The notes under the pieces were generated by a model. It was given only the letters and a program-made list of their open reading frames with translations. It ran no database searches and was not told the origin of the DNA. Positions 1,292 through 46,884 of a stretch of 46,884 bases of DNA are shown piece after piece. Each line of letters begins with the position of its first letter. Positions within the stretch are counted from its first letter, which is position 1. Source of the stretch: a virus (Duplodnaviria; Caudoviricetes); IMG/VR virus record IMGVR_UViG_3300037424_002473, positions 1 to 46,884 of that record, one strand, 5' to 3'. A program made the translations under genes and the position numbers.

Positions 1292-1787
1292 ATAATGTGC
1301 AGAAAATTATAAGGGTAATATCTAATAGTAATAATATTTTGCCCGAAAAAAAATTATTATATACTTGATTATATCTATTGTTGAGCTATTTTTGCGCTCA
1401 AATTTAATGCAAAACGAGAAGTAAAAAAAATATCATAGTGTATCATTATCTTACCATTTAAGTATCACTTTACGAAAGAACGTATATTATTTTTACCACA
1501 TACACCGTAATATTTCATTTTAACACTCGTTACTTAGCGATCTAACTATGTGCTATAATAGTTAGTATTTTTTTAAAAGTGTGTGACAGTTGAGCTATAA
1601 CTAGCAATGTTATAAGCATGGTATTGTATTGCACATACTTTACGTACTATACTGTATAACATTACTTTGCATTATACTCAAAAACCAAAAGATGTGTGAC
1701 AACATGAATTTGAAAGGGCTATAACTGTAGTAGTTACCTGTGGAATCTTATCTGTAATTTTCTGTGGGCTGTACTATATCTGCTAAA

Positions 1788-2243
1788 TTATGCGGAGTTG
1801 CGTTTGCGAGATGCTTCATACTCGGCGTTTTTGTGTAAGGCTTCTTTTAGCATTTCTCTACAATCTAATTTATCATTTCTTAAATCTGTAACCTGCTGTG
1901 TTAGTATCTTTACCTGTTCCTTTAGAGAATCTATTATACGCTCTTTTTCTAAACAATGACTACACTCTCCTGGTGTTTCTTCTAATTGTATATTTTTAGA
2001 ATTTACCTTAACATTTATGTTATCATTTAGGTTAACATTTAGGTTAACATCATCAGATGTAAAATACTCAAAAGAAATATTAAATATACGTATAAATTTT
2101 ATTATTAAATCAAGTGAAGGTTGTATTTTACCACTCTCTATTTGAGAAATAGGGGATTGTTTTATATTCAACTTCTCCGCTAATTGAGCTTGTGTTAGTC
2201 CAAAATGCTTTCGTAACTCCCTTATTTTCTTACTAAAGTCCAT
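1788..2243 (-). CDS. XRE-family HTH prophage repressor
   Basis: IRELRKHFGLTQAQLAEKLNIKQSPISQIESG HTH; C-terminal coiled coil; at left end, divergent from early operon. Confidence 0.85.
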   Translation of the reverse strand: MDFSKKIRELRKHFGLTQAQLAEKLNIKQSPISQIESGKIQPSLDLIIKFIRIFNISFEYFTSDDVNLNVNLNDNINVKVNSKNIQLEETPGECSHCLEKERIIDSLKEQVKILTQQVTDLRNDKLDCREMLKEALHKNAEYEASRKRNSA

Positions 2244-2323: not shown

Positions 2324-2563
2324 ATGAGTAATAATTTGAAAAAACAATATCGGGGAAAAAGATGGCCTACAACACCGATGGTTGTGGCAGAGATTTGCGG
2401 ATTCTCAAAAGAGCATGTAAGCCGCATTATGAATGGCAAAGTTAAGAAAGATCGCAACCAGGTTGTTAGGGAGAACTATTTATTCAGGCAACATGTAGAT
2501 CAATACATCAAGACCCGAAAAGCAGAAAAACAATTAGAAATCGAAAGGAACCGCTTGGGGTAA
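2324..2563 (+). CDS. Cro/Ner-like small DNA-binding protein
   Basis: VAEICGFSKEHVSRIMNG HTH; position opposite the repressor. Confidence 0.7.
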   Translation: MSNNLKKQYRGKRWPTTPMVVAEICGFSKEHVSRIMNGKVKKDRNQVVRENYLFRQHVDQYIKTRKAEKQLEIERNRLG

Positions 2564-2588
2564 TGTTGTCACACACACTTTCAAAGCA

Positions 2589-3064: not shown

Positions 3065-3177
3065 AACAACAATTTTATAGGTTAAACAATGGAAACCCCG
3101 AAGTTAATAAAAAAACTTGTAAGCCTTAAACATCGGAACAGGCCGGGGAGCAAACAGATAATTAATTTTTACGAAAT

Positions 3178-3411: not shown

Positions 3412-5730
3412 GTGCCAGTACTTATAAACGACATATTATTTATTGAAGGCAGAAAGCTTGTAAAGAAGAGAATTATATCAAGTGGAAGTTTAAGAGTTGA
3501 GCTTACTAGGCAACGAAATGGGAAATTACAGTGCTGGAGGTATGAACGTTTTACACATAATTATCCTGATGAATTTATACAACATCGAATTGATAGCCGA
3601 AAAGGAGTGGTATATTTTTACTTCGAAAGCCTGCGAGATAAATACAAAGAAGCAATCAAGGATAAATTATGCAAAGGACATGATCCTTATTTATATGCAG
3701 TAAACAAGAATGAGATATTAAAACAAGAGCGCAACGAGCAGTCTCGAAGATTAAGGCTAGACTTACAAGCTCGTGAACTGGAACTACGCAAAGAAGATTA
3801 CACCAACGAACTACCAAAACTTATTAAAATCAGTTATTCAGATGAAAATTACCTGATACAAAATGGTTTATCGGTAAAAGAAGCCGGGCAAATGGCTCGT
3901 ACTTGCGGATGGCTTGATTTATTGGCTGCTATGAAACCTAAAAAAGCTCGTGAGTTTGGCTTTGAAAATATGCCTGCTTTCCGTGAGTATGTTTTTAATA
4001 CAATGGCATCGGAGTTTAAACAAGGTTTAATCAAGTTTAAAGATGGTATGCCGAGTAATATTCAAATCTTAGGACGTTACGAACGTGATTGGAAAGATAA
4101 TGGCCCTAAATGTATGCTAACAGGCCGTAGAGGAAATACAAACCGTTCAATTATTGGTAAATCTACCGATAATGAAGTACTAATGGTAGGCCGTTACAAT
4201 ATAAAAGAATGGCATGCAGCTACTATCATAACGATATATACTAACCCGGGAGATTCACGCAAGTTTGATAAAGAAGAAACATACCGCCGATATAAACGCC
4301 AATGCGAAAAAGCAGATAAACGTCCTGCAAGTATAGGTGCAATGAAGCGATTCTTAAACGATCAGGCAGTTAATGTATTCTGCATGGGTGAGCGTGACGG
4401 TTATAAGGAACTTGATAAACTTATGCCTTCGGTTCGAAGAGAAAAGCCTAAAATGTCGCTTATTAAAGGTGGTTTTGATGGATTCCAGGTTGATTTTTAC
4501 AGCGAAATTGATGGAGCAAATATTATGCTAACCGTGGAGGCTCTGTTTGATTATTCGAGCGATGCCATTACAGGTTTTGATATAGGACTTGTTGAAAATG
4601 GTTTAATGGTTCGCAATATGCTACGTTCGCATTTTGCATTAAACGATAACCGTGGATTTATAGAACTGGAGTCGGATCGTGGAACAACAAACTTAAGCGC
4701 AGCCAGTAAATCAATTATCAATCGTTGTTGTGGCACTTTTAAAGCTCCTGCACCAAATTGGCCAGTGAATGTTCCTGGAAAGAAAAAGCCATCGAATCCA
4801 AAAGGAAGGCGTGTAGAGCGAATTGTAAGGGAAGTTAACCGTATTGCTCAAAATATGGAAGGATGGAAAGGCGGTAACGTTAAATCGGTGCGAAGTAACA
4901 TGGAACCAAATCCTGATTATAAATTAAATAATCTTCCAAAAGGATTAGAAGCGGCCAAACAAGCTGTTATTTCACTCATCAATGCTTACAATCACGAAAA
5001 ATTAAAGAATGGTGCAAGCCGTTGGGATAATTATATTAACAATATTAATACCGATGCTCCTGTAATATTGCCATTACAACAAAGCCTAATACTTAACGAG
5101 TGGAGCATTACAACAGTACGTGCCGGATTGGTATCGGTTGAGCTGGATAAAGAAACATACGAGTTTGATTTCTGGAATTACCTTGATTATGCACATAAAT
5201 TAAATAAAGGTTTTAAATGCCGTGTGAGCTTTGATCCACAGCGAGCCGATAAAGCTTTGATTTTTGCTTTTGACGAAAAAGACAGGAATAATACAGAAAA
5301 AGACAGGTTTGTATGCGAAATAACCAAACTTAAACGAGTAAAAGAAGCTCTTTATGAGCAAACAGATGATGATCGTAAAGAGCTTGGTCGCCAACATTCA
5401 AACAGAAATAAGGTCATTTTATCACAACATAGAAAATACTTAGAATTACAGGCATCGAAAATGGACTTAGACATAGGTGATATGGACATTAAAGACGCTC
5501 AAAAAATTGTTAGCGGAGCACTTTTAAGCGAAGGAATTGATTGTATTGAAAGTTTTACCGAGAGATTTGGTACTCCGTTAAATTCTAAGGAAGCAAAACG
5601 CCAGGAAGAGTTTTACAAAGAGATGTTATTGCCAGGGATTAATATTCCGGTGCGAAGTTTACCTGCAGAAAACAACGAGTCTGAAAAGCGCAAACATCAA
5701 CGAAAGAAATTTGCAAAAAAAGCAATATAA
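3412..5730 (+). CDS. MuA-like DDE transposase
   Basis: Candidate triad GFDG ... ESDRG ... KGRRVER; followed by AAA ATPase; GTG start. Confidence 0.8.
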   Translation: MPVLINDILFIEGRKLVKKRIISSGSLRVELTRQRNGKLQCWRYERFTHNYPDEFIQHRIDSRKGVVYFYFESLRDKYKEAIKDKLCKGHDPYLYAVNKNEILKQERNEQSRRLRLDLQARELELRKEDYTNELPKLIKISYSDENYLIQNGLSVKEAGQMARTCGWLDLLAAMKPKKAREFGFENMPAFREYVFNTMASEFKQGLIKFKDGMPSNIQILGRYERDWKDNGPKCMLTGRRGNTNRSIIGKSTDNEVLMVGRYNIKEWHAATIITIYTNPGDSRKFDKEETYRRYKRQCEKADKRPASIGAMKRFLNDQAVNVFCMGERDGYKELDKLMPSVRREKPKMSLIKGGFDGFQVDFYSEIDGANIMLTVEALFDYSSDAITGFDIGLVENGLMVRNMLRSHFALNDNRGFIELESDRGTTNLSAASKSIINRCCGTFKAPAPNWPVNVPGKKKPSNPKGRRVERIVREVNRIAQNMEGWKGGNVKSVRSNMEPNPDYKLNNLPKGLEAAKQAVISLINAYNHEKLKNGASRWDNYINNINTDAPVILPLQQSLILNEWSITTVRAGLVSVELDKETYEFDFWNYLDYAHKLNKGFKCRVSFDPQRADKALIFAFDEKDRNNTEKDRFVCEITKLKRVKEALYEQTDDDRKELGRQHSNRNKVILSQHRKYLELQASKMDLDIGDMDIKDAQKIVSGALLSEGIDCIESFTERFGTPLNSKEAKRQEEFYKEMLLPGINIPVRSLPAENNESEKRKHQRKKFAKKAI

Positions 5731-5748: not shown

Positions 5749-6777
5749 ATGGCAACCGCTAAAATTAATACTAATACTAATTTTAAATTAAAAGCTATGA
5801 CAAAAGTAAGTATTACAAATCCTTTAACATCAGAAACAAAGGAAAAAATTGTTTTAACTGTTGAAAATTACATTGAAAACCGCAAAGGAACAGCCGGATT
5901 TTTGGTTGACAACTTCTTAAAATCGGTTGAAGGCGTAAACAAAACAGATTGGAGTTATATGCGCAATCGTAACTGGGATAAAGTACGTACGGTAAGATCT
6001 GGAAAAGAAGTATTATCGAGTGTTAAAGATATTAAGTTTTTAAATCTTGGAAGAGCTGTAGGGTTGGAATTTGAAGGCGATTATTGGCAACACTTTAATA
6101 CAGACAATTACATGATGATATGTAATGTGATCAGTGAAGCCAGGACACGTAAAATACCTTATTGTATTGATGGTGATACCGGACAAGGTAAAACATACAG
6201 CATTTCACGCTATCACCAGGAACGTTCGGCAGATACTTTTGTGGTACGATGTGCAGGTGATATGAGCGTGAAAGATTTTATTGTTGAAGTTGCTGAAGCT
6301 GTAGGTTGCGAAGCTGTTGGAAGTAAAGTTCAAGTACGAAAAAGAATTGTAAGGCATCTTTCCAAGAAAAATGATCCGGTATTAATTATTGATGAAGCCG
6401 AAAACTTAAAAGACGGTGCGTATGATGGTATTAAAGCCATGATGGATGATTTAAAAGGCATTTGCCCGATCGTTATTGTTGGAGCAAATGATTACCAGTC
6501 GAAGCTTCAGAAACTTGCCGAAAAGAAAAAGAAAAGCTTTCCACAGATATATTCAAGATTAAAAGAAGGTGGTTTTAACCGACTGTTTGAAATGGGACGT
6601 GAAGATGTAAGCGGTATTTGTAATGCTTTAAATATAAAAGATAAGAGCCTGATAGGATTATTAGCAAATTACTGTAGTAATATGAGAGAGTTATCGGGTA
6701 CTATAACCACATTGCTTAAAGAAGCTGATCAGGCAGGACGCCCTGTTGATTCTGCATTATTTAAAGCTATTATTTAA
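5749..6777 (+). CDS. MuB-like AAA+ ATPase (start possibly 5797)
   Basis: Walker A GDTGQGKT, Walker B LIIDEAE. Confidence 0.85.
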   Translation: MATAKINTNTNFKLKAMTKVSITNPLTSETKEKIVLTVENYIENRKGTAGFLVDNFLKSVEGVNKTDWSYMRNRNWDKVRTVRSGKEVLSSVKDIKFLNLGRAVGLEFEGDYWQHFNTDNYMMICNVISEARTRKIPYCIDGDTGQGKTYSISRYHQERSADTFVVRCAGDMSVKDFIVEVAEAVGCEAVGSKVQVRKRIVRHLSKKNDPVLIIDEAENLKDGAYDGIKAMMDDLKGICPIVIVGANDYQSKLQKLAEKKKKSFPQIYSRLKEGGFNRLFEMGREDVSGICNALNIKDKSLIGLLANYCSNMRELSGTITTLLKEADQAGRPVDSALFKAII

Positions 6778-9702: not shown

Positions 9703-10127
9703 GTTTAGACCCACAAAAAATACAACGCTTCCACACACTAATGCACCGATGCAACCTGATAGATCAGAAGGAACATATATTAACCGGGCAGGGAGTTGAA
9801 AGCACTAAGGATTTAACCGAAATGCAACTGGATGGATTAATAGCCTGGTTAAATTCATTACTTCAATGGAGTGAGCTTAAAGACTACCAGTTTGCCACTT
9901 TCGACAATTCTAACAAACAGCACAGGTATTTACTAAGCTTATGCCAGGAATACGGATGGACTGTTTTTAACCAAAAGTTAAAACGTGAAGTGGCTGATCT
10001 TAACAGGTTAGGTGCGTGGATCAGAAAGTGTAGTGCTGCTAAAAAACCGCTTTTACAGCAAGATACTAAAGAAGTACAAAAGACTGTATACCAGTTTGAG
10101 CAAATGGTTAAGAAACATTTTAGTTAA
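9699..10127 (+). CDS. GemA/gp16-like regulatory protein
   Basis: STKDLTEMQLDGLI resembles the GemA motif; Mu-like position. Confidence 0.5.
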   Translation: MSLDPQKIQRFHTLMHRCNLIDQKEHILTGQGVESTKDLTEMQLDGLIAWLNSLLQWSELKDYQFATFDNSNKQHRYLLSLCQEYGWTVFNQKLKREVADLNRLGAWIRKCSAAKKPLLQQDTKEVQKTVYQFEQMVKKHFS

Positions 10128-32312: not shown

Positions 32313-33296
32313 ATGAAAGTACAAGTTCAAGAAACAGGTATACGTAGATGGTTTGGAAGTGATTATATAAGCTTACAGAATGAGCTTTATGTAGCATTAG
32401 AAGGCTTCTTTGAACCTTATGGAAATATGATAATTAAAGGTTGTGAAACAAGCGATAATGGTGATGGAACCTGGCGAATTGGAGCCGGGCTGGTTGGATT
32501 ATATTCACCATTAGCGGATGAGTATCGTATTTGTCGTGTTGCACAGTCTGATATTTCAAATACACATGCTGCTGTATATTTAACTTTAACTTCATCAACA
32601 ACTTTACGCCCTTATAAAACAGGTGGTTCGAAAGCTGTAGTTAAAGAGTATAAAGCACAAATAAATACTGTTCAACCCGGTAGTGGTGAATTTTTAACCA
32701 TTAACGCAAACGGTAATAATATTACTTTCCGTGATGCTATTCAAAGTGCCAATTATCGAATGGTTACAGATGCAAAAATATCTACTTGGGATAATATTAT
32801 TAATACAATCAGGGGTGGTGTTAGTTCAGGTTATGATACGCTTGAGAAACTTCGATCTTACGTAAATTCGGTTTATAATAGTTTATTAAATCAATTTCTG
32901 ATTCATATTCAAGATACGGGAGGCGAAGTGGTTAATTATTGGTCTGTTCATTATGAAGATTCAATATATGCTGGACATGAAACAGAAATAAAAGCTACTA
33001 AATTTAAGAATGGAATGGTTTGTTTAACTTTTCATAGTAATTTCCCTGCTAGTGATTTTCCAAATGCTGAAACATGGACGAATACCGGAGATATATTTCT
33101 GTTGCCTGAAGATTTCAGACCACTGCAAAACGTTGATTTTTATGCGGCAGGCTCACTTGATGGGATTACAACTTCATATCATCAATTCCAGTTGACAACA
33201 GCAGGTAAAATAGCGAATCGTTGTGCTCCGAGTCATGGAGCTGTCTATTATATGACAAATTTGTCAGAGGATAATATGGAACAATTTGAAATATAA
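32313..33296 (+). CDS. tail fibre / receptor-binding protein
   Basis: YDTLEKL fibre motif; C-terminal LPEDFRP. Confidence 0.65.
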   Translation: MKVQVQETGIRRWFGSDYISLQNELYVALEGFFEPYGNMIIKGCETSDNGDGTWRIGAGLVGLYSPLADEYRICRVAQSDISNTHAAVYLTLTSSTTLRPYKTGGSKAVVKEYKAQINTVQPGSGEFLTINANGNNITFRDAIQSANYRMVTDAKISTWDNIINTIRGGVSSGYDTLEKLRSYVNSVYNSLLNQFLIHIQDTGGEVVNYWSVHYEDSIYAGHETEIKATKFKNGMVCLTFHSNFPASDFPNAETWTNTGDIFLLPEDFRPLQNVDFYAAGSLDGITTSYHQFQLTTAGKIANRCAPSHGAVYYMTNLSEDNMEQFEI

Positions 33297-33598
33297 TGTA
33301 CTACATTGGAGGAAGCTTTGCTAAGTACCTTAGAGGTAAAGAAGCAAAATATAAGGATATTGATATTTATGTTAGTCATAAAAACCTTATCCCTTTATTA
33401 AATAAGTTATCAAAAAAAGGTATTGGGCTTGTGGGGCACCAGGATGATAAGATAGTTTCTCATTCCGCCAAATTAGGCAATATTGATATAATGGTATTTC
33501 ATCCGAATTTTAAATTTTCAACAACAAAAATAGGATGTTTCAGGGTTCTTTCAAACAGGACTCTTAAACGGATTTATAAATACGCTAATAACAAATAA
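33296..33598 (+). CDS. minimal Pol-beta-superfamily nucleotidyltransferase-like protein
   Basis: IGGS ... DIDI ... IDI motifs. Confidence 0.6.
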   Translation: MYYIGGSFAKYLRGKEAKYKDIDIYVSHKNLIPLLNKLSKKGIGLVGHQDDKIVSHSAKLGNIDIMVFHPNFKFSTTKIGCFRVLSNRTLKRIYKYANNK

Positions 33599-33608
33599 TC
33601 ATTAAACT

Positions 33609-34415
33609 ATGTGTGTGACAAAAATTAAGACTCCAATTAGTTATTATGGAGGTAAACAAAGTATGCTCAATGAAATATTACCATTAATACCGGAAGAGCA
33701 TAAAATCTATGTAGAACCATTTTTCGGAGGTGGAGCTGTATTTTGGGCTAAAGAGCCAAGCCGATGCGAGGTTATTAATGATGTTAATATGAACATTGTT
33801 AATTTTTATGAAGTACTTAAACACAGTTATTTTGACCTACGCAAAAAAGTTGAAGCTACTCTTCACAGCAGGGAAACTTATAAAAGAGCTTTGATAATTT
33901 ATAACAGCCCTTGGTTGTTTCCTGATATGCCAGTGATACGTGCTTGGGCTTTTTATGTTGTAACGAATCAAGGATTCTCGTGTAAAATTGGAACTTGGGG
34001 CTATGATAGGGATAAAAGGGCCAGAACAATTCAAAACAAGATTGATTCTTTTCAGGAGGAACTATCAGACCGTTTAAGATATACGCAAATAGAGCAAAAT
34101 GAAGCTCATAAAGTAATTTCAAGCCGTGATACTGAAGATACTTTTGTGTATGCTGATCCACCATACATTGATACTAATCAAGGTCATTATGGAGGTTATT
34201 CTCATGAATATTTTAAACGTGATTTAAACGCTTTAGCCAATATGAAAGGTAAATTCCTGCTTAGTACATATCCTTCAGATATACTGGATGAGTTCATCAA
34301 ATCAAAAGGATGGTACACTAAGCAGCATGAAAAGATTCTATCGGCATCAAACGGTAATGTTGTAAAATCGAGGAAAAAGAAAATAGAAGTTTTAACTGCT
34401 AATTACCCTATTTAA
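33609..34415 (+). CDS. D12-class DNA adenine methyltransferase
   Basis: YYGGK, YVEPFFGGGAV, EVINDV, DPPY. Confidence 0.9.
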   Translation: MCVTKIKTPISYYGGKQSMLNEILPLIPEEHKIYVEPFFGGGAVFWAKEPSRCEVINDVNMNIVNFYEVLKHSYFDLRKKVEATLHSRETYKRALIIYNSPWLFPDMPVIRAWAFYVVTNQGFSCKIGTWGYDRDKRARTIQNKIDSFQEELSDRLRYTQIEQNEAHKVISSRDTEDTFVYADPPYIDTNQGHYGGYSHEYFKRDLNALANMKGKFLLSTYPSDILDEFIKSKGWYTKQHEKILSASNGNVVKSRKKKIEVLTANYPI

Positions 34416-34422
34416 ACACTGT

Positions 34423-34542
34423 TTAAACAAAAGTGGGTGGGGATGTTGTCACACACCTTTAAAGCACAAGCCAAAAAGCTACCCGGGGGTAGTCCCCACC
34501 CGAATATTTTTACTTTTTGGCTTGTTTTAAAATGTGTGTGAC
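34423..34542 (-). ncRNA. candidate regulatory small RNA with two crossing helices
   Basis: TATATTTG box at 34554-34547; helices 34435-43/34493-501 and 34448-78/34513-42; T-rich tail. Confidence 0.55.
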
Positions 34543-34564
34543 GATGCAAATATAATGAAGATTG

Positions 34565-35053
34565 TTACATTTCCTGTATCTTCTTATTATAAAACTTTAC
34601 AGAATTTTCAGCAGAAACACCTAACAGTCTAACAAACAGGTCAACGCAATAATATGATTTAGGTATAATATCCTTGTATCCTTGCCATATTAGAGTCCAA
34701 AGCTCACTAGGTTCTTTGATATTTGAATGTGAAAGCTGTAAATAGACGTCTAAGCAACGTCCGTATGAAATATCATTTGCCCAAGCAGATGATTCTTTAT
34801 ACTTGCTATACTCTTCTACTTTGATTGGCGTTAAGTTCTTCGCCTCAATATCAGCAATAATATTACTTAACCTAGCAATGTTTTGTTTAGCAGTGATAAC
34901 AGTCAATTGCTCAACATCATCATTAAACCTGTCTCCTTGTAATATAGCTTCAATAGTACGAACTGACTTGTTCGTGTGAAATCCTATTTGTTCTCGATCT
35001 TCTTTGCTTATAAGGGCTCTAATTGCCTGTAGCTGTGTTGTAGTGATATTCAT
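34565..35053 (-). CDS. hypothetical protein with N-terminal HTH-like region and its own promoter
   Basis: REQIGFHTNKSVRTIEAILQG; TAACTTTG box at 35087-35080. Confidence 0.6.
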   Translation of the reverse strand: MNITTTQLQAIRALISKEDREQIGFHTNKSVRTIEAILQGDRFNDDVEQLTVITAKQNIARLSNIIADIEAKNLTPIKVEEYSKYKESSAWANDISYGRCLDVYLQLSHSNIKEPSELWTLIWQGYKDIIPKSYYCVDLFVRLLGVSAENSVKFYNKKIQEM

Positions 35054-35343
35054 ATTTAATCTTTGTAGTAAATTCACTACAAAGTTAGAGCCTTTTTTAG
35101 AAAAACAATGCCTCTGTACAATTCAATTTAAGAGCATTTAAGCGACTTTATATTGTTTCTCGCAGGAATGGATTCGAGTAGAATAAACTTAGTAAATGGC
35201 TGTATGTGCTATTTTGTAAGGTATAATTAGAATTGTTGAAAACTTGGTTTGTGGTGAATTTACGACAGAAATATTAACATACCGTTGTACTTATTAACAC
35301 ATCCTTGCATTATAGGAAAAGGAGTATTTATATTGCAGTCATA

Positions 35344-35394
35344 ATTTTTACTTTTCAATATAAATTATTTTTACTTTTGGTTTCGCCGATTATA
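35344..35394. repeat. candidate right-end transposase binding sites
   Basis: ATTTTTACTTTT at 35344 and 35367 (23-bp period), then GGTTTCGCCGATTATA. Confidence 0.5.
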
Positions 35395-35485
35395 AAATAA
35401 AAGTATTCCTTTCAAAATCTGAAATATATTAGCTATTTATTTTTACAAATAGAGATGGCTATTTAAGCAAATATATTTATGTAAA

Positions 35486-38173: not shown

Positions 38174-38301
38174 AATTCTAAATTCAATATTTGGTTAATA
38201 ACATCATAAATATAGAAAATAATATTTACTTTCTGTACAAAAACTATTTGTAATATTTTTTTGTTGGTGGAGAAGGAAGAAAAATTAATCGTAAAAACGC
38301 C

Positions 38302-38435
38302 CTATAACATCGGGTCTTAAAGCATGCGGGGTGTATTTTAAGTTTGACAATTTTTGCTATATTTGTTTCAATGTCAACGGGTGACATTGAAACGCGGCGC
38401 GCTCCCGCCCGCTTCAAACCCGAAGAACGTTATAA
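38302..38435 (+). repeat. attC-like site 3 (134 bp)
   Basis: CTATAAC ... GTTATAA; arms TCGGGT..GCGGG / CCCGC..ACCCGA. Confidence 0.8.
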
Positions 38436-38747
38436 GCAAGGCGTCTAAAAAAAATCCGAATACTTCATCTCATCTTGACAAGTCAATAAATTAAATTAAC
38501 TTTTTTCCGGTTTGACACTGTTTTCAAGTTTGAAACTTTATTTCATTACTGACAATTAAAATATTATTTCTTTTCGTAATGGTTTGACAGTGTATTTTTC
38601 AGGATTGGTTCGGTAGGTATGACAGGTAAAAAATTAGTATCCCAACGCGCTTTGCAGCCTGACGGCTGCATTTGTGATTTATTAAAGCATATTTGCTTCG
38701 CAAAAAAGCTTTAATTAAAAAAGTTAGCGGCAAAAAAATAAAGCGTC

Positions 38748-40602: not shown

Positions 40603-40736
40603 TTATAACACGTGTTCAAGTTCAACGCGGGGTTTGGTAGTTTGCTGACTAAGTTTTATCTTAGTAAAGTTGTTCAACGGGGGACAATGAAACAAGGCGG
40701 AAACCCCGCGCTAAACTTAACACGGGACCGTTATAA
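40603..40736 (+). repeat. attC-like site 4 (134 bp)
   Basis: TTATAAC ... GTTATAA; arms CGTGTT-C-AAGTT..CGCGGGG / CCCCGCG..AACTTAACACG. Confidence 0.8.
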
Positions 40737-43986: not shown

Positions 43987-44088
43987 ATTGCCTTACAGGC
44001 AATTTGCAATCCCTTTTAAAAACTAAAACAATTTTGTGCTTCGTTGAAAATTATTACCAAACTGACAAGGTTTATGTTGCCGGCCAAT

Positions 44089-44222
44089 TTATAACACGGC
44101 ATCTTAAAACATGCGGGGTTTTGGTGGTTTTTTGACATTTTTAATTATCTTTAAACTTTACAACGGCGGATTGGAACGCTGGGCGGAAAACCCGCACGTT
44201 TCAAATGCCGAGACCGTTAGGC
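44089..44222 (+). repeat. attC-like site 5 (134 bp)
   Basis: TTATAAC ... GTTAGGC; arms CGGCAT..AAACATGCGGG / CCCGCACGTTT..ATGCCG. Confidence 0.8.
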
Positions 44223-45011: not shown

Positions 45012-45146
45012 GCCTAACATCGGGTCTTAAAGCATGCGGGGTATAGTAAAAGTTTGACAATAATTGTTATATTTGTTTCAGTGTCAACGGGTGACACTGA
45101 AACGCCGCGGCCTCCCGCACGCTGTTAAACCCGAAGACCGTTACAC
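45012..45146 (+). repeat. attC-like site 6 (135 bp)
   Basis: GCCTAAC ... GTTACAC; close relative of site 3. Confidence 0.8.
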
Positions 45147-45159
45147 ATAATTTTTTAAT

Positions 45160-45849: not shown

Positions 45850-45857
45850 AAAACAAT

Positions 45858-45992
45858 GTGTAACATCGGGTCAGCGTACATGCGGGGTTTTGGTGGTTTG
45901 CTGACAAAATATTATCTTAGTAAAGTTGTTCAACGGGTGATAATGAAACGCGGCGCAAACCCGCACGATACGCTACCCGAAGAACGTTATAA
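45858..45992 (+). repeat. attC-like site 7 (135 bp)
   Basis: GTGTAAC ... GTTATAA; arms TCGGGT-C-AGCGTA..TGCGGG / CCCGCA..TACGCTACCCGA. Confidence 0.8.
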
Positions 45993-46006
45993 AGCCATTT
46001 TTTAAT

Positions 46007-46771
46007 ATGAAACACATGAAACAATATTTACTTTTATTTAGTTTAATACTGACGGTTTTTATTTCTGAGAAATCATTTGGTCAAGGTCAATATTCAATGA
46101 CTCATATTGCAATTGCACCTCAAAATAAGAAAATAATTCTTTCAGAAATCTGGAGAAATTCGCGTGAAGATTATCGTGGTTATGTTAAAAATTCAAAGTT
46201 ATATGAATTTCCTCTTGACTGTAACAATAGCAAAGATCTTATACTATGTGATAACTATGAATGGTCAAAAGATGGAAGGTTTTTCACTGGATTTAAATCA
46301 AAATCATGGTACGATTCAGAAATTTATCTTTATGAATCTACTGGAAAACTAATTGATAAAATCAAAAATGGTTATACATATTCATTTGTGCTTCCAGAAT
46401 TTCATGTTTTTTATCGACAGCATGATACTCTAAGTAAAAAACGAATTTGTCAATTAGTACAATATGACTATAAGAATAAGTCAGAAACTATAATATATTC
46501 GTTTGGAGAAGACTATACGTTTTATAGTCCAGAAGACCATGATGGATTTGGTTTTCCAAAACCACTTGATTATTACTGGGGTGGCTTAAGGGGTGTAATT
46601 TATAAAATTACTAAAACTGACCATGAAAACTTTACTGGAAATATTATGGAATATGAAACTTTAACATTTGTTATTTCAACAAAAGACAAAAAGCTTAAAT
46701 ATTTGATTCAAGGTTCTCATACTGACAAGAAACCATTACCAGAAGATAAAATATTAAAGTCGAGTAGGTAA
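46007..46771 (+). CDS. secreted hypothetical protein (cassette G), 3' end interrupted by intron
   Basis: Signal peptide; last codons and stop lie inside intron sequence. Confidence 0.65.
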   Translation: MKHMKQYLLLFSLILTVFISEKSFGQGQYSMTHIAIAPQNKKIILSEIWRNSREDYRGYVKNSKLYEFPLDCNNSKDLILCDNYEWSKDGRFFTGFKSKSWYDSEIYLYESTGKLIDKIKNGYTYSFVLPEFHVFYRQHDTLSKKRICQLVQYDYKNKSETIIYSFGEDYTFYSPEDHDGFGFPKPLDYYWGGLRGVIYKITKTDHENFTGNIMEYETLTFVISTKDKKLKYLIQGSHTDKKPLPEDKILKSSR

Positions 46772-46884
46772 AGGGGAGTTTCACCCCTAAACCTCTCACG
46801 GAACCGTGCTTGACAGTCTCCCATCACACGGCTCTTCGAACTCTCGCAACCATCTCAGGTTGACAGGTTGAAAACAAGCTCATC
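46759..46884 (-). mobile_element. group II intron 3' end (domains V-VI), continues beyond the window
   Basis: Minus strand GAGCCGTGTGATGGGAGACTGTCAAGCACGGTTC (DV), then DVI ending CCTACTCGAC. Confidence 0.85.

Follow-up and report, generated by a model that had tools for sequence, protein, structure and literature searches.

Judged by its gene content, the window (the whole stretch of 46,884 nucleotides analysed here) holds a transposable prophage of the Bacteroidota type. The genes run from a repressor and a small divergent gene through a transposase-size open reading frame and a MuB-like ATPase to Mu-type portal and head genes, contractile tail genes and, as the last late gene, a D12-class adenine methylase. 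The major capsid protein is 52% identical to its counterpart in hankyphage p00, and the best annotated relative of the methylase (48%) is that of Winogradskyella phage Peternella_1, described as an isolated Mu-like phage (PMC8776804). The features that frame the analysis are the following.

1788..2243, minus strand: XRE-type repressor, from gene call and family search
2324..2563, plus strand: small divergent gene in the Ner position, with no family and only a weak helix-turn-helix likeness
3412-5730, plus strand: large ORF in the transposase position, no family match
5749-6777, plus strand: MuB-like AAA ATPase, from gene call and family search
33609..34415, plus strand: D12-class adenine DNA methyltransferase (PF02086, DPPY motif), in the position of Mu mom
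34565..35077, minus strand: 170-aa ORF of no known family, stopping just upstream of the predicted RNA promoter
35345..35394, no strand assigned: likely prophage right end, two ATTTTTACTTTT repeats followed by CCGATTATA as in relatives
71-215, 957-1101, 38300-38450, 40630-40710, 44085-44200, 45015-45156 and 45854-46002: flank repeats of about 145 nt

From its likeness to the ends of relatives, the right end of the prophage probably lies at 35394. A tentative left-end candidate is position 1308, within 1304-1315, where TATAAGGG resembles the Peternella_1 sequence TACAGGGG; AAAT is found at both prophage flanks (1304-1315 and 35386-35398), an equally tentative observation. In the host flanks the repeated elements stand between single genes and resemble a gene-cassette array, and group II intron 3′ domains lie at the window edge (46759-46836, minus strand). 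As in the com-mom arrangement of phage Mu, a DNA-modification gene (PF02086, 33609-34415) is the last late gene before the right end near 35394. No Com-like reading frame was found among the ORFs of at least 25 aa in 33150-33640, nor a four-cysteine finger, and a Pfam search with the 100-aa ORF of this interval gave no match. The 170-aa ORF beyond the methylase received no name from Pfam-type family and protein atlas searches; its transcription could conceivably continue into the element described below.

A predicted small RNA behind the methylase gene

Between the methylase gene and the 170-aa ORF lies the element at 34423-34554, for which an earlier sequence-only reading had proposed a leftward antisense RNA with its own promoter and two crossing helices. 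Both signals are present: the box TATATTTG lies at 34547-34554, and the strands GGGUGGGGA and UCCCCACCC form the crossing helix. The description of the unit as free of ORFs holds for longer frames, but the plus strand carries a 32-codon ORF from 34443. In Bacteroidota promoters the box extends from T-12 to G-5, with the last G at -5 (PMC6847099); since the box occupies 34547-34554, this spacing predicts a +1 at 34542, a G with which the 5′ arm begins. The consensus used by a sigma-70 promoter scan lies outside the promoters of the phylum Bacteroidota. The parts of the element, all on the minus strand, are listed here in the order of the RNA.

34547..34554, minus strand: Bacteroidota -7 promoter box TATATTTG; in relatives, similar boxes precede the arm by a few bases
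34526..34542, minus strand: 5′ arm (GUCACACAC...), pairing either with the methylase start or, within the hairpin, with the inner arm
34513-34525 with 34466-34478, minus strand: inner 13-bp stem, within 34466..34525
34493-34501, minus strand: 5′ strand of the crossing helix, enclosed by the inner stem
34479-34492, minus strand: small hairpin, enclosed by the inner stem
34444..34465, minus strand: inner arm and 4-nt unpaired linker, complementary to early and repressor-side sites
34435-34443, minus strand: 3′ strand of the crossing helix (9 bp), within 34423..34443
34423..34443, minus strand: U-rich tail and predicted 3′ end, downstream of the crossing helix 3′ strand

From 5′ to 3′ the RNA would thus read 5′ arm, inner stem, crossing helix 5′ strand, small hairpin and returning inner stem, followed by inner arm, 4-nt linker, crossing helix 3′ strand and U-run. 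The minimum-energy fold of the minus strand reaches -52.1 kcal/mol (z -7.45 against shuffles) versus -38.9 kcal/mol (z -2.44) for the plus strand. This fold pairs the 5′ arm with the inner arm, the presumed antisense segment, a pairing that the earlier reading had missed. With both arms paired internally, the RNA would have to refold to release either of them. Outer and crossing helices are comparable in strength (-16.8 and -18.6) and, judged by helix geometry, the 4-nt linker cannot span the 30-bp stem, so the RNA likely adopts two alternative folds, one with the arms locked and the other a pseudoknot that would free both. Taken by its sequence signals for expression, the element is likely the gene of a leftward small RNA of about 110 nt.

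Rfam returned nothing at gathering score for the element or 20 related loci; by E-value, matches for the element, the early region and the hankyphage copy were at chance level only, and no c4-2-type match appeared for any of these sequences, the 20 loci included. HDV-like ribozymes are marked by a 7-bp P1 with a G-U. Such a ribozyme was considered for the helix order and rejected, with neither this P1 nor an Rfam match in the element.

A fold family that co-varies with the methylase start

Methylase relatives were gathered from viral, genome and metagenome collections, giving 185 loci with duplicates kept. A box followed by a long hairpin stands on the leftward strand at 88 of these loci versus 24 on the other strand; many distant methylases among the 185 lack the combination. 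From the loci 75 distinct candidates were called without reference to the crossing helix, and 41 of them have one of at least 8 bp, compared with 3.7% of shuffled tails. In assembling the set for the arm swaps below, two loci (L209 and L445) were left out as false by eye and two others (L168 and L149) were put in by hand. In a 17-sequence alignment all nine pairs of the outer helix are changed on both sides (9/9) and 94% paired; slid controls collapse, and the shuffle control retained the kinship among the 17 sequences. A U-rich run follows the crossing helix (5-10 of 12 bases in the 37 copies measured). In the upstream cluster the variable stems were hard to align, so that a consensus fold retrieved the crossing helix alone; the covariance model R1, built on 8 pairs only, was poor at finding upstream copies.

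The family reaches described phages. In hankyphage a copy precedes hp44, thyA and the phage's methyltransferase, its alleles show compensatory changes in the inner stem, and the 21 matching phage records carry no annotation for it; in Peternella_1 a copy read by eye lies ahead of the methylase. The portions consulted of PMC12135933 and PMC7366714 do not mention this RNA, and no description of it was found in the literature searched. The fold is likely an uncatalogued family, predicted to be an RNA, that is common to many Bacteroidota Mu-like phages. Scanning viral contigs for a 14-base pattern produced 119 loci, whose matches extend over at most 24 bases and are taken as chance. The proteobacterial leaders TJ1 and Bise fold into a branched structure plus a terminal hairpin, and because this shape differs, their homology to the element is unsupported. 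Among the methylase relatives L169-L183, L185, L211 and L219, whose contigs bear the label Flavobacterium or Chryseobacterium, many carry in-frame TGA at tryptophan or glycine positions, a hint of recoded inserts or of contigs assigned wrongly.

Wherever the element stands beside a methylase gene it points leftwards, whether it lies upstream or downstream of the gene, and the layout has switched five times on the methylase tree, at least three of them forced. In downstream copies the arm sequence is repeated at the methylase start and varies from phage to phage. In the window, the 5′ arm forms 16 bp with 33602-33619 around the AUG (two-base bulge, -18.8), as the earlier reading had claimed. 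It had also called for a check of whether RNA and targets co-vary in relatives, and the methylase start does co-vary with the 5′ arm: when arms are swapped among downstream copies, the methylase start of the same phage comes out best in 11 of 21, the other 10 preferring another start. With one copy per seed it ranks first in 6 of 14 (binomial p 2e-4). The seeds differ widely (GUCACAC, GUCGCAC, ACCACAC, GCUUAGA, GCUACAA), and relative to an in-frame AUG most duplexes fall between about -18 and +16, the frame varying. Co-variation of the seed with the start region of a target is what a trans-acting antisense RNA would display. Copies in the upstream layout, which by their position are complementary to the leader, mostly have no repeat of the arm at the start codon: the own start is first in 2 of 17, one of the two being hankyphage at hp44.

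Further loci differ in detail. One copy (L365), read by eye, matches the start through its apical loop, and in five loci (L130, L139, L147, L155 and L159) the start resembles the motif and the gene lacks a complete element next to it. Close methylase relatives (L378, L381, L383 and L385) bear different arm sequences, which hints at specificity groups or module swapping. We rejected the idea that the motif is a DNA site of the methylase itself, since it differs between methylases that are close to 80% identical.

Complementary sites within the prophage and competing readings

The motif TGTGTGAC occurs six times in the window versus 0.68 expected, and none of 100 shuffles reaches six. Its copies and the complementary sites are as follows.

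1580+, 1693+, 2568-, 33612+, 34448-, 34535+: copies of TGTGTGAC, with strand
2563..2588, plus strand: early inner-arm site, overlapping the Ner-like stop and the AUG of a 26-codon ORF (2563-2643)
1688..1705, minus strand: second inner-arm site, downstream of the repressor stop and beginning at the AUG of a 21-codon ORF
1572..1588, minus strand: third inner-arm site, downstream of the repressor
33602..33619, plus strand: 5′-arm target, spanning -7 to +10 around the methylase AUG

The proposed pairing of the inner segment with the early transcript is borne out: 24 bp form with 2563-2588, with two one-base bulges and -34.7 kcal/mol for a 31-nt piece. This is the best of all prophage windows for the inner arm (z -8.1), with an alignment score of 40 versus at most 27 for foreign arms; the repressor-side sites score 31 and 29. 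A match of 12 nt had been noted downstream of the repressor (1693-1704), and here 17-18 bp form with 1688-1705 on the repressor strand (-26.7). The third site, 17 bp at 1572-1588 (-24.1), had been overlooked. The sites at 2563 and 1688 both carry AUGUU, which pairs with the unpaired linker. Around these sites we also note a compact three-way hairpin with a T-loop-like arm directly after the early site (2589-2640), a similar GC-clamped element near 3095-3160 that is kept in L238 and L244, a long imperfect hairpin between the two repressor-side sites (1590-1682) and a short hydrophobic reading frame without a clear start near 1706-1786.

That the inner arm stops early transcription before the transposase, conferring immunity as in P4 CI or P1 C4, would suit the rank of the early site in this prophage and its cover of a coupled stop and start. 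The comparison with relatives makes such a role improbable. In 13 prophages (two of 15 were dropped, having no transposase-size ORF) the own inner arm ranked first in the pre-transposase region only in this phage, and the G015/L140 pair was also negative. Distal inner-arm sites above the foreign-arm maximum occur in 3 of 21, namely the window, G028 and G025, and in the latter two the site lies 22 nt before a small mid-genome gene. These counts refer to the extent of the records, some of which start at the repressor, so that sites to its left fall outside their range; the closest relative (G039) is truncated on both sides. Close relatives with a complete left end were sought by a Ner-like profile in metagenomes, a MuB profile (23 and 8 genomes) and the early-site pattern, and none was found. 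Since the early site is strong here and absent in 13 other prophages, immunity is not the role of the family, and on the sequences compared the link between the prophage ends is a trait of this phage or of an unsampled lineage. Immunity also fits poorly because the RNA matches the repressor transcript as well as the early one. What stands of the earlier proposal of RNA-based immunity or timing control is the trans antisense RNA with two folds and the timing; its choice of the early site as the main target gives way to the methylase start, which it had listed last and which is the conserved, co-varying partner.

A different sign of control is conceivable at the methylase itself, with the RNA opening a leader hairpin and so replacing Com, which would accord with the Com-less window. 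In six downstream copies (L134, L135, L140, L141, L145 and L167) the inner arm fits a site about 50 nt upstream of the AUG equally well or better, and in most of the six this site can pair with the start-proximal copy; over 20 copies, the inner arm ranks first or second in six. The leader sites of those six could serve activation, with a sign of control that differs between phages. As a general account activation is nevertheless very unlikely: the window and most downstream copies have the start-codon site only, and a housekeeping promoter would be expected to be on in the lysogen.

Equally hard to sustain is the reading in which the working strand is the late mRNA, whose 3′ tail would fold onto its own start codon or terminate, the box being incidental. 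The plus-strand left arm pairs with the start at -15.9 versus -18.8 for the 5′ arm, and with pieces of equal length the 5′ arm is better in 9 of 20 copies, worse in 7 and tied in 4. The leftward strand folds better in 16 of 20 downstream copies, and the gene strand in 16 of 18 upstream copies (mostly one clade), where a U-run follows the inner stem. Against an incidental box stand its near-fixed distance to the element and the G found 5 nt after it in 13 of 14 seeds; moreover, L146 and L154 follow the 5′ arm rather than the left arm. A copy remote from the methylase also bears on the question. The covariance model found, at 36 bits, an untrained copy in prophage G020 with the box TACCTTTG, at the end of the early operon and about 27 kb from a methylase without an adjacent element. 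The 9-mer complementary to the first bases of the RNA, AAGTGTAGC, occurs twice in the 40 kb of G020 read, once within the RNA and once 4 nt before the methylase AUG; of 163 other starts, one pairs better than this duplex (-15.4), as do some windows within the G020 prophage itself. As a single case, this copy favours trans action over a fold of the methylase mRNA.

Two other mid-genome structures were observed. Near position 9790 of G005 (phage orientation) lies a short remnant with matching arms; the methylase of G005 is truncated, and the seed of the remnant fits its start. In G021 a second structured leader with a TATATTTG box (L333:5700-5860, minus strand) gives a weak c4-2 match of 22.7 bits versus a gathering score of 41, and the motif at its 5′ end is found again at the start codon of the following gene, an arrangement like that of C4-type control; the 215-aa product had no match in a Pfam search.

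Least probable of all is that TGTGTGAC acts as a DNA site, either the protein-bound operator that the earlier reading had named as its alternative or inverted repeats that invert the segment with repressor and ner or the one with the methylase. The repressor and Ner-like genes are indeed flanked by 13-bp inverted repeats (1693 and 2563-2575) and the methylase by 11-bp ones, but the repressor-ner promoter gap (2244-2323) holds no TGTGTGAC, which weakens the operator, the motif varies among phages yet stays paired within the fold, and the matches continue through bulges and G-U pairs.

Probable antisense control of a mom-position methylase

We consider it probable, with real room for doubt, that the RNA is a trans-acting antisense repressor of the mom-position methylase whose 5′ arm covers the start codon. 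This reading draws on the box, the hairpin, the crossing helix and the co-variation of the 5′ arm with the methylase start in layouts that do not overlap. Counted against it are the burial of the 5′ arm in the lowest-energy fold and, for adjacent copies, the equal-length comparison, which keeps a cis fold of the mRNA in play. In the lysogen the RNA would be made from a housekeeping promoter; the crossing helix would help to open the outer helix and so free the 5′ arm, which could then pair over the methylase start and block initiation, and in late growth transcription would outrun the RNA and release the methylase. Structure at -20 to +20 is reported to lower initiation in Flavobacterium (PMC6847099). 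The methylase would likely be kept off until late infection. Where the element lies upstream of the methylase, its transcript would serve as an antisense RNA in cis to the leader, and in this phage the early and repressor sites would be a local addition, as further targets or as triggers that open the hairpin.

For these additional sites a trigger role fits better than immunity. Taken further, the RNA might be a two-arm logic gate with the linker as toehold, which we regard as a speculative but not negligible extension. The hairpin would be invaded at the inner arm by the repressor mRNA during lysogeny or by early mRNA shortly after induction, which would free the 5′ arm onto the methylase start, so that methylase would be made only after both transcripts have disappeared. 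For the family as a whole, the arms would be a swappable specificity code recruiting different start codons.

P1 C4, which we compare together with P4 CI, is a small structured immunity RNA that uses short complementary sites. P4 CI is described as processed from the leader it controls and as ending transcription of the replication genes (PMC4825925). Like them, the element would give a small structured phage RNA with short complementary sites; their precursors pair with a target-like copy of their own, and here one site lies in the early transcript. The element differs in having its own box 32 kb from the early site, a methylase as its conserved partner and no Rfam match. Nor is it encoded in a leader that it controls, the element lying at 34423-34554 and the site at 2563, and conserved complementary sites in early leaders were not found outside this phage. 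The antisense RNAs of IS10 (RNA-OUT) and of the pT181 type are cis-encoded and fully complementary to their targets. Antisense blocking of a start region, and in the upstream layout a possible attenuator-like role, are shared with them, whereas the arm here is variable, pairs over 9-17 bp and would be able to act from downstream or from 27 kb away.

In Mu, mom lies at the right end, is harmful and is confined strictly to late growth, and FluMu, Pnm1 and B3 have operons of com plus an adenine methylase (PMC3299994). The present locus resembles com-mom as a right-end DNA-modification gene of a transposable phage that would be harmful if mistimed and controlled post-transcriptionally; it differs in that no Com was found, the predicted regulator being an RNA that pairs with the start codon, and in its Bacteroidota host. 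On the sequences compared here, the RNA likely works in the manner of antisense RNAs that block a start codon and takes the place of mom control, outside the CI/C4 group.

The element offers a candidate regulator, together with its target bases, for the right-end DNA-modification gene of Com-less Mu-like phages. The family amounts to a natural experiment, in which relocation of the RNA out of the leader is accompanied by a start-codon copy that matches it. For hankyphage, lysogens and stranded RNA-seq are described (PMC12135933), and the unannotated copies there and in the isolate Peternella_1 make the prediction readily testable. A compact RNA with a variable seed may, finally, be of use as a gene-silencing part for Bacteroidota.
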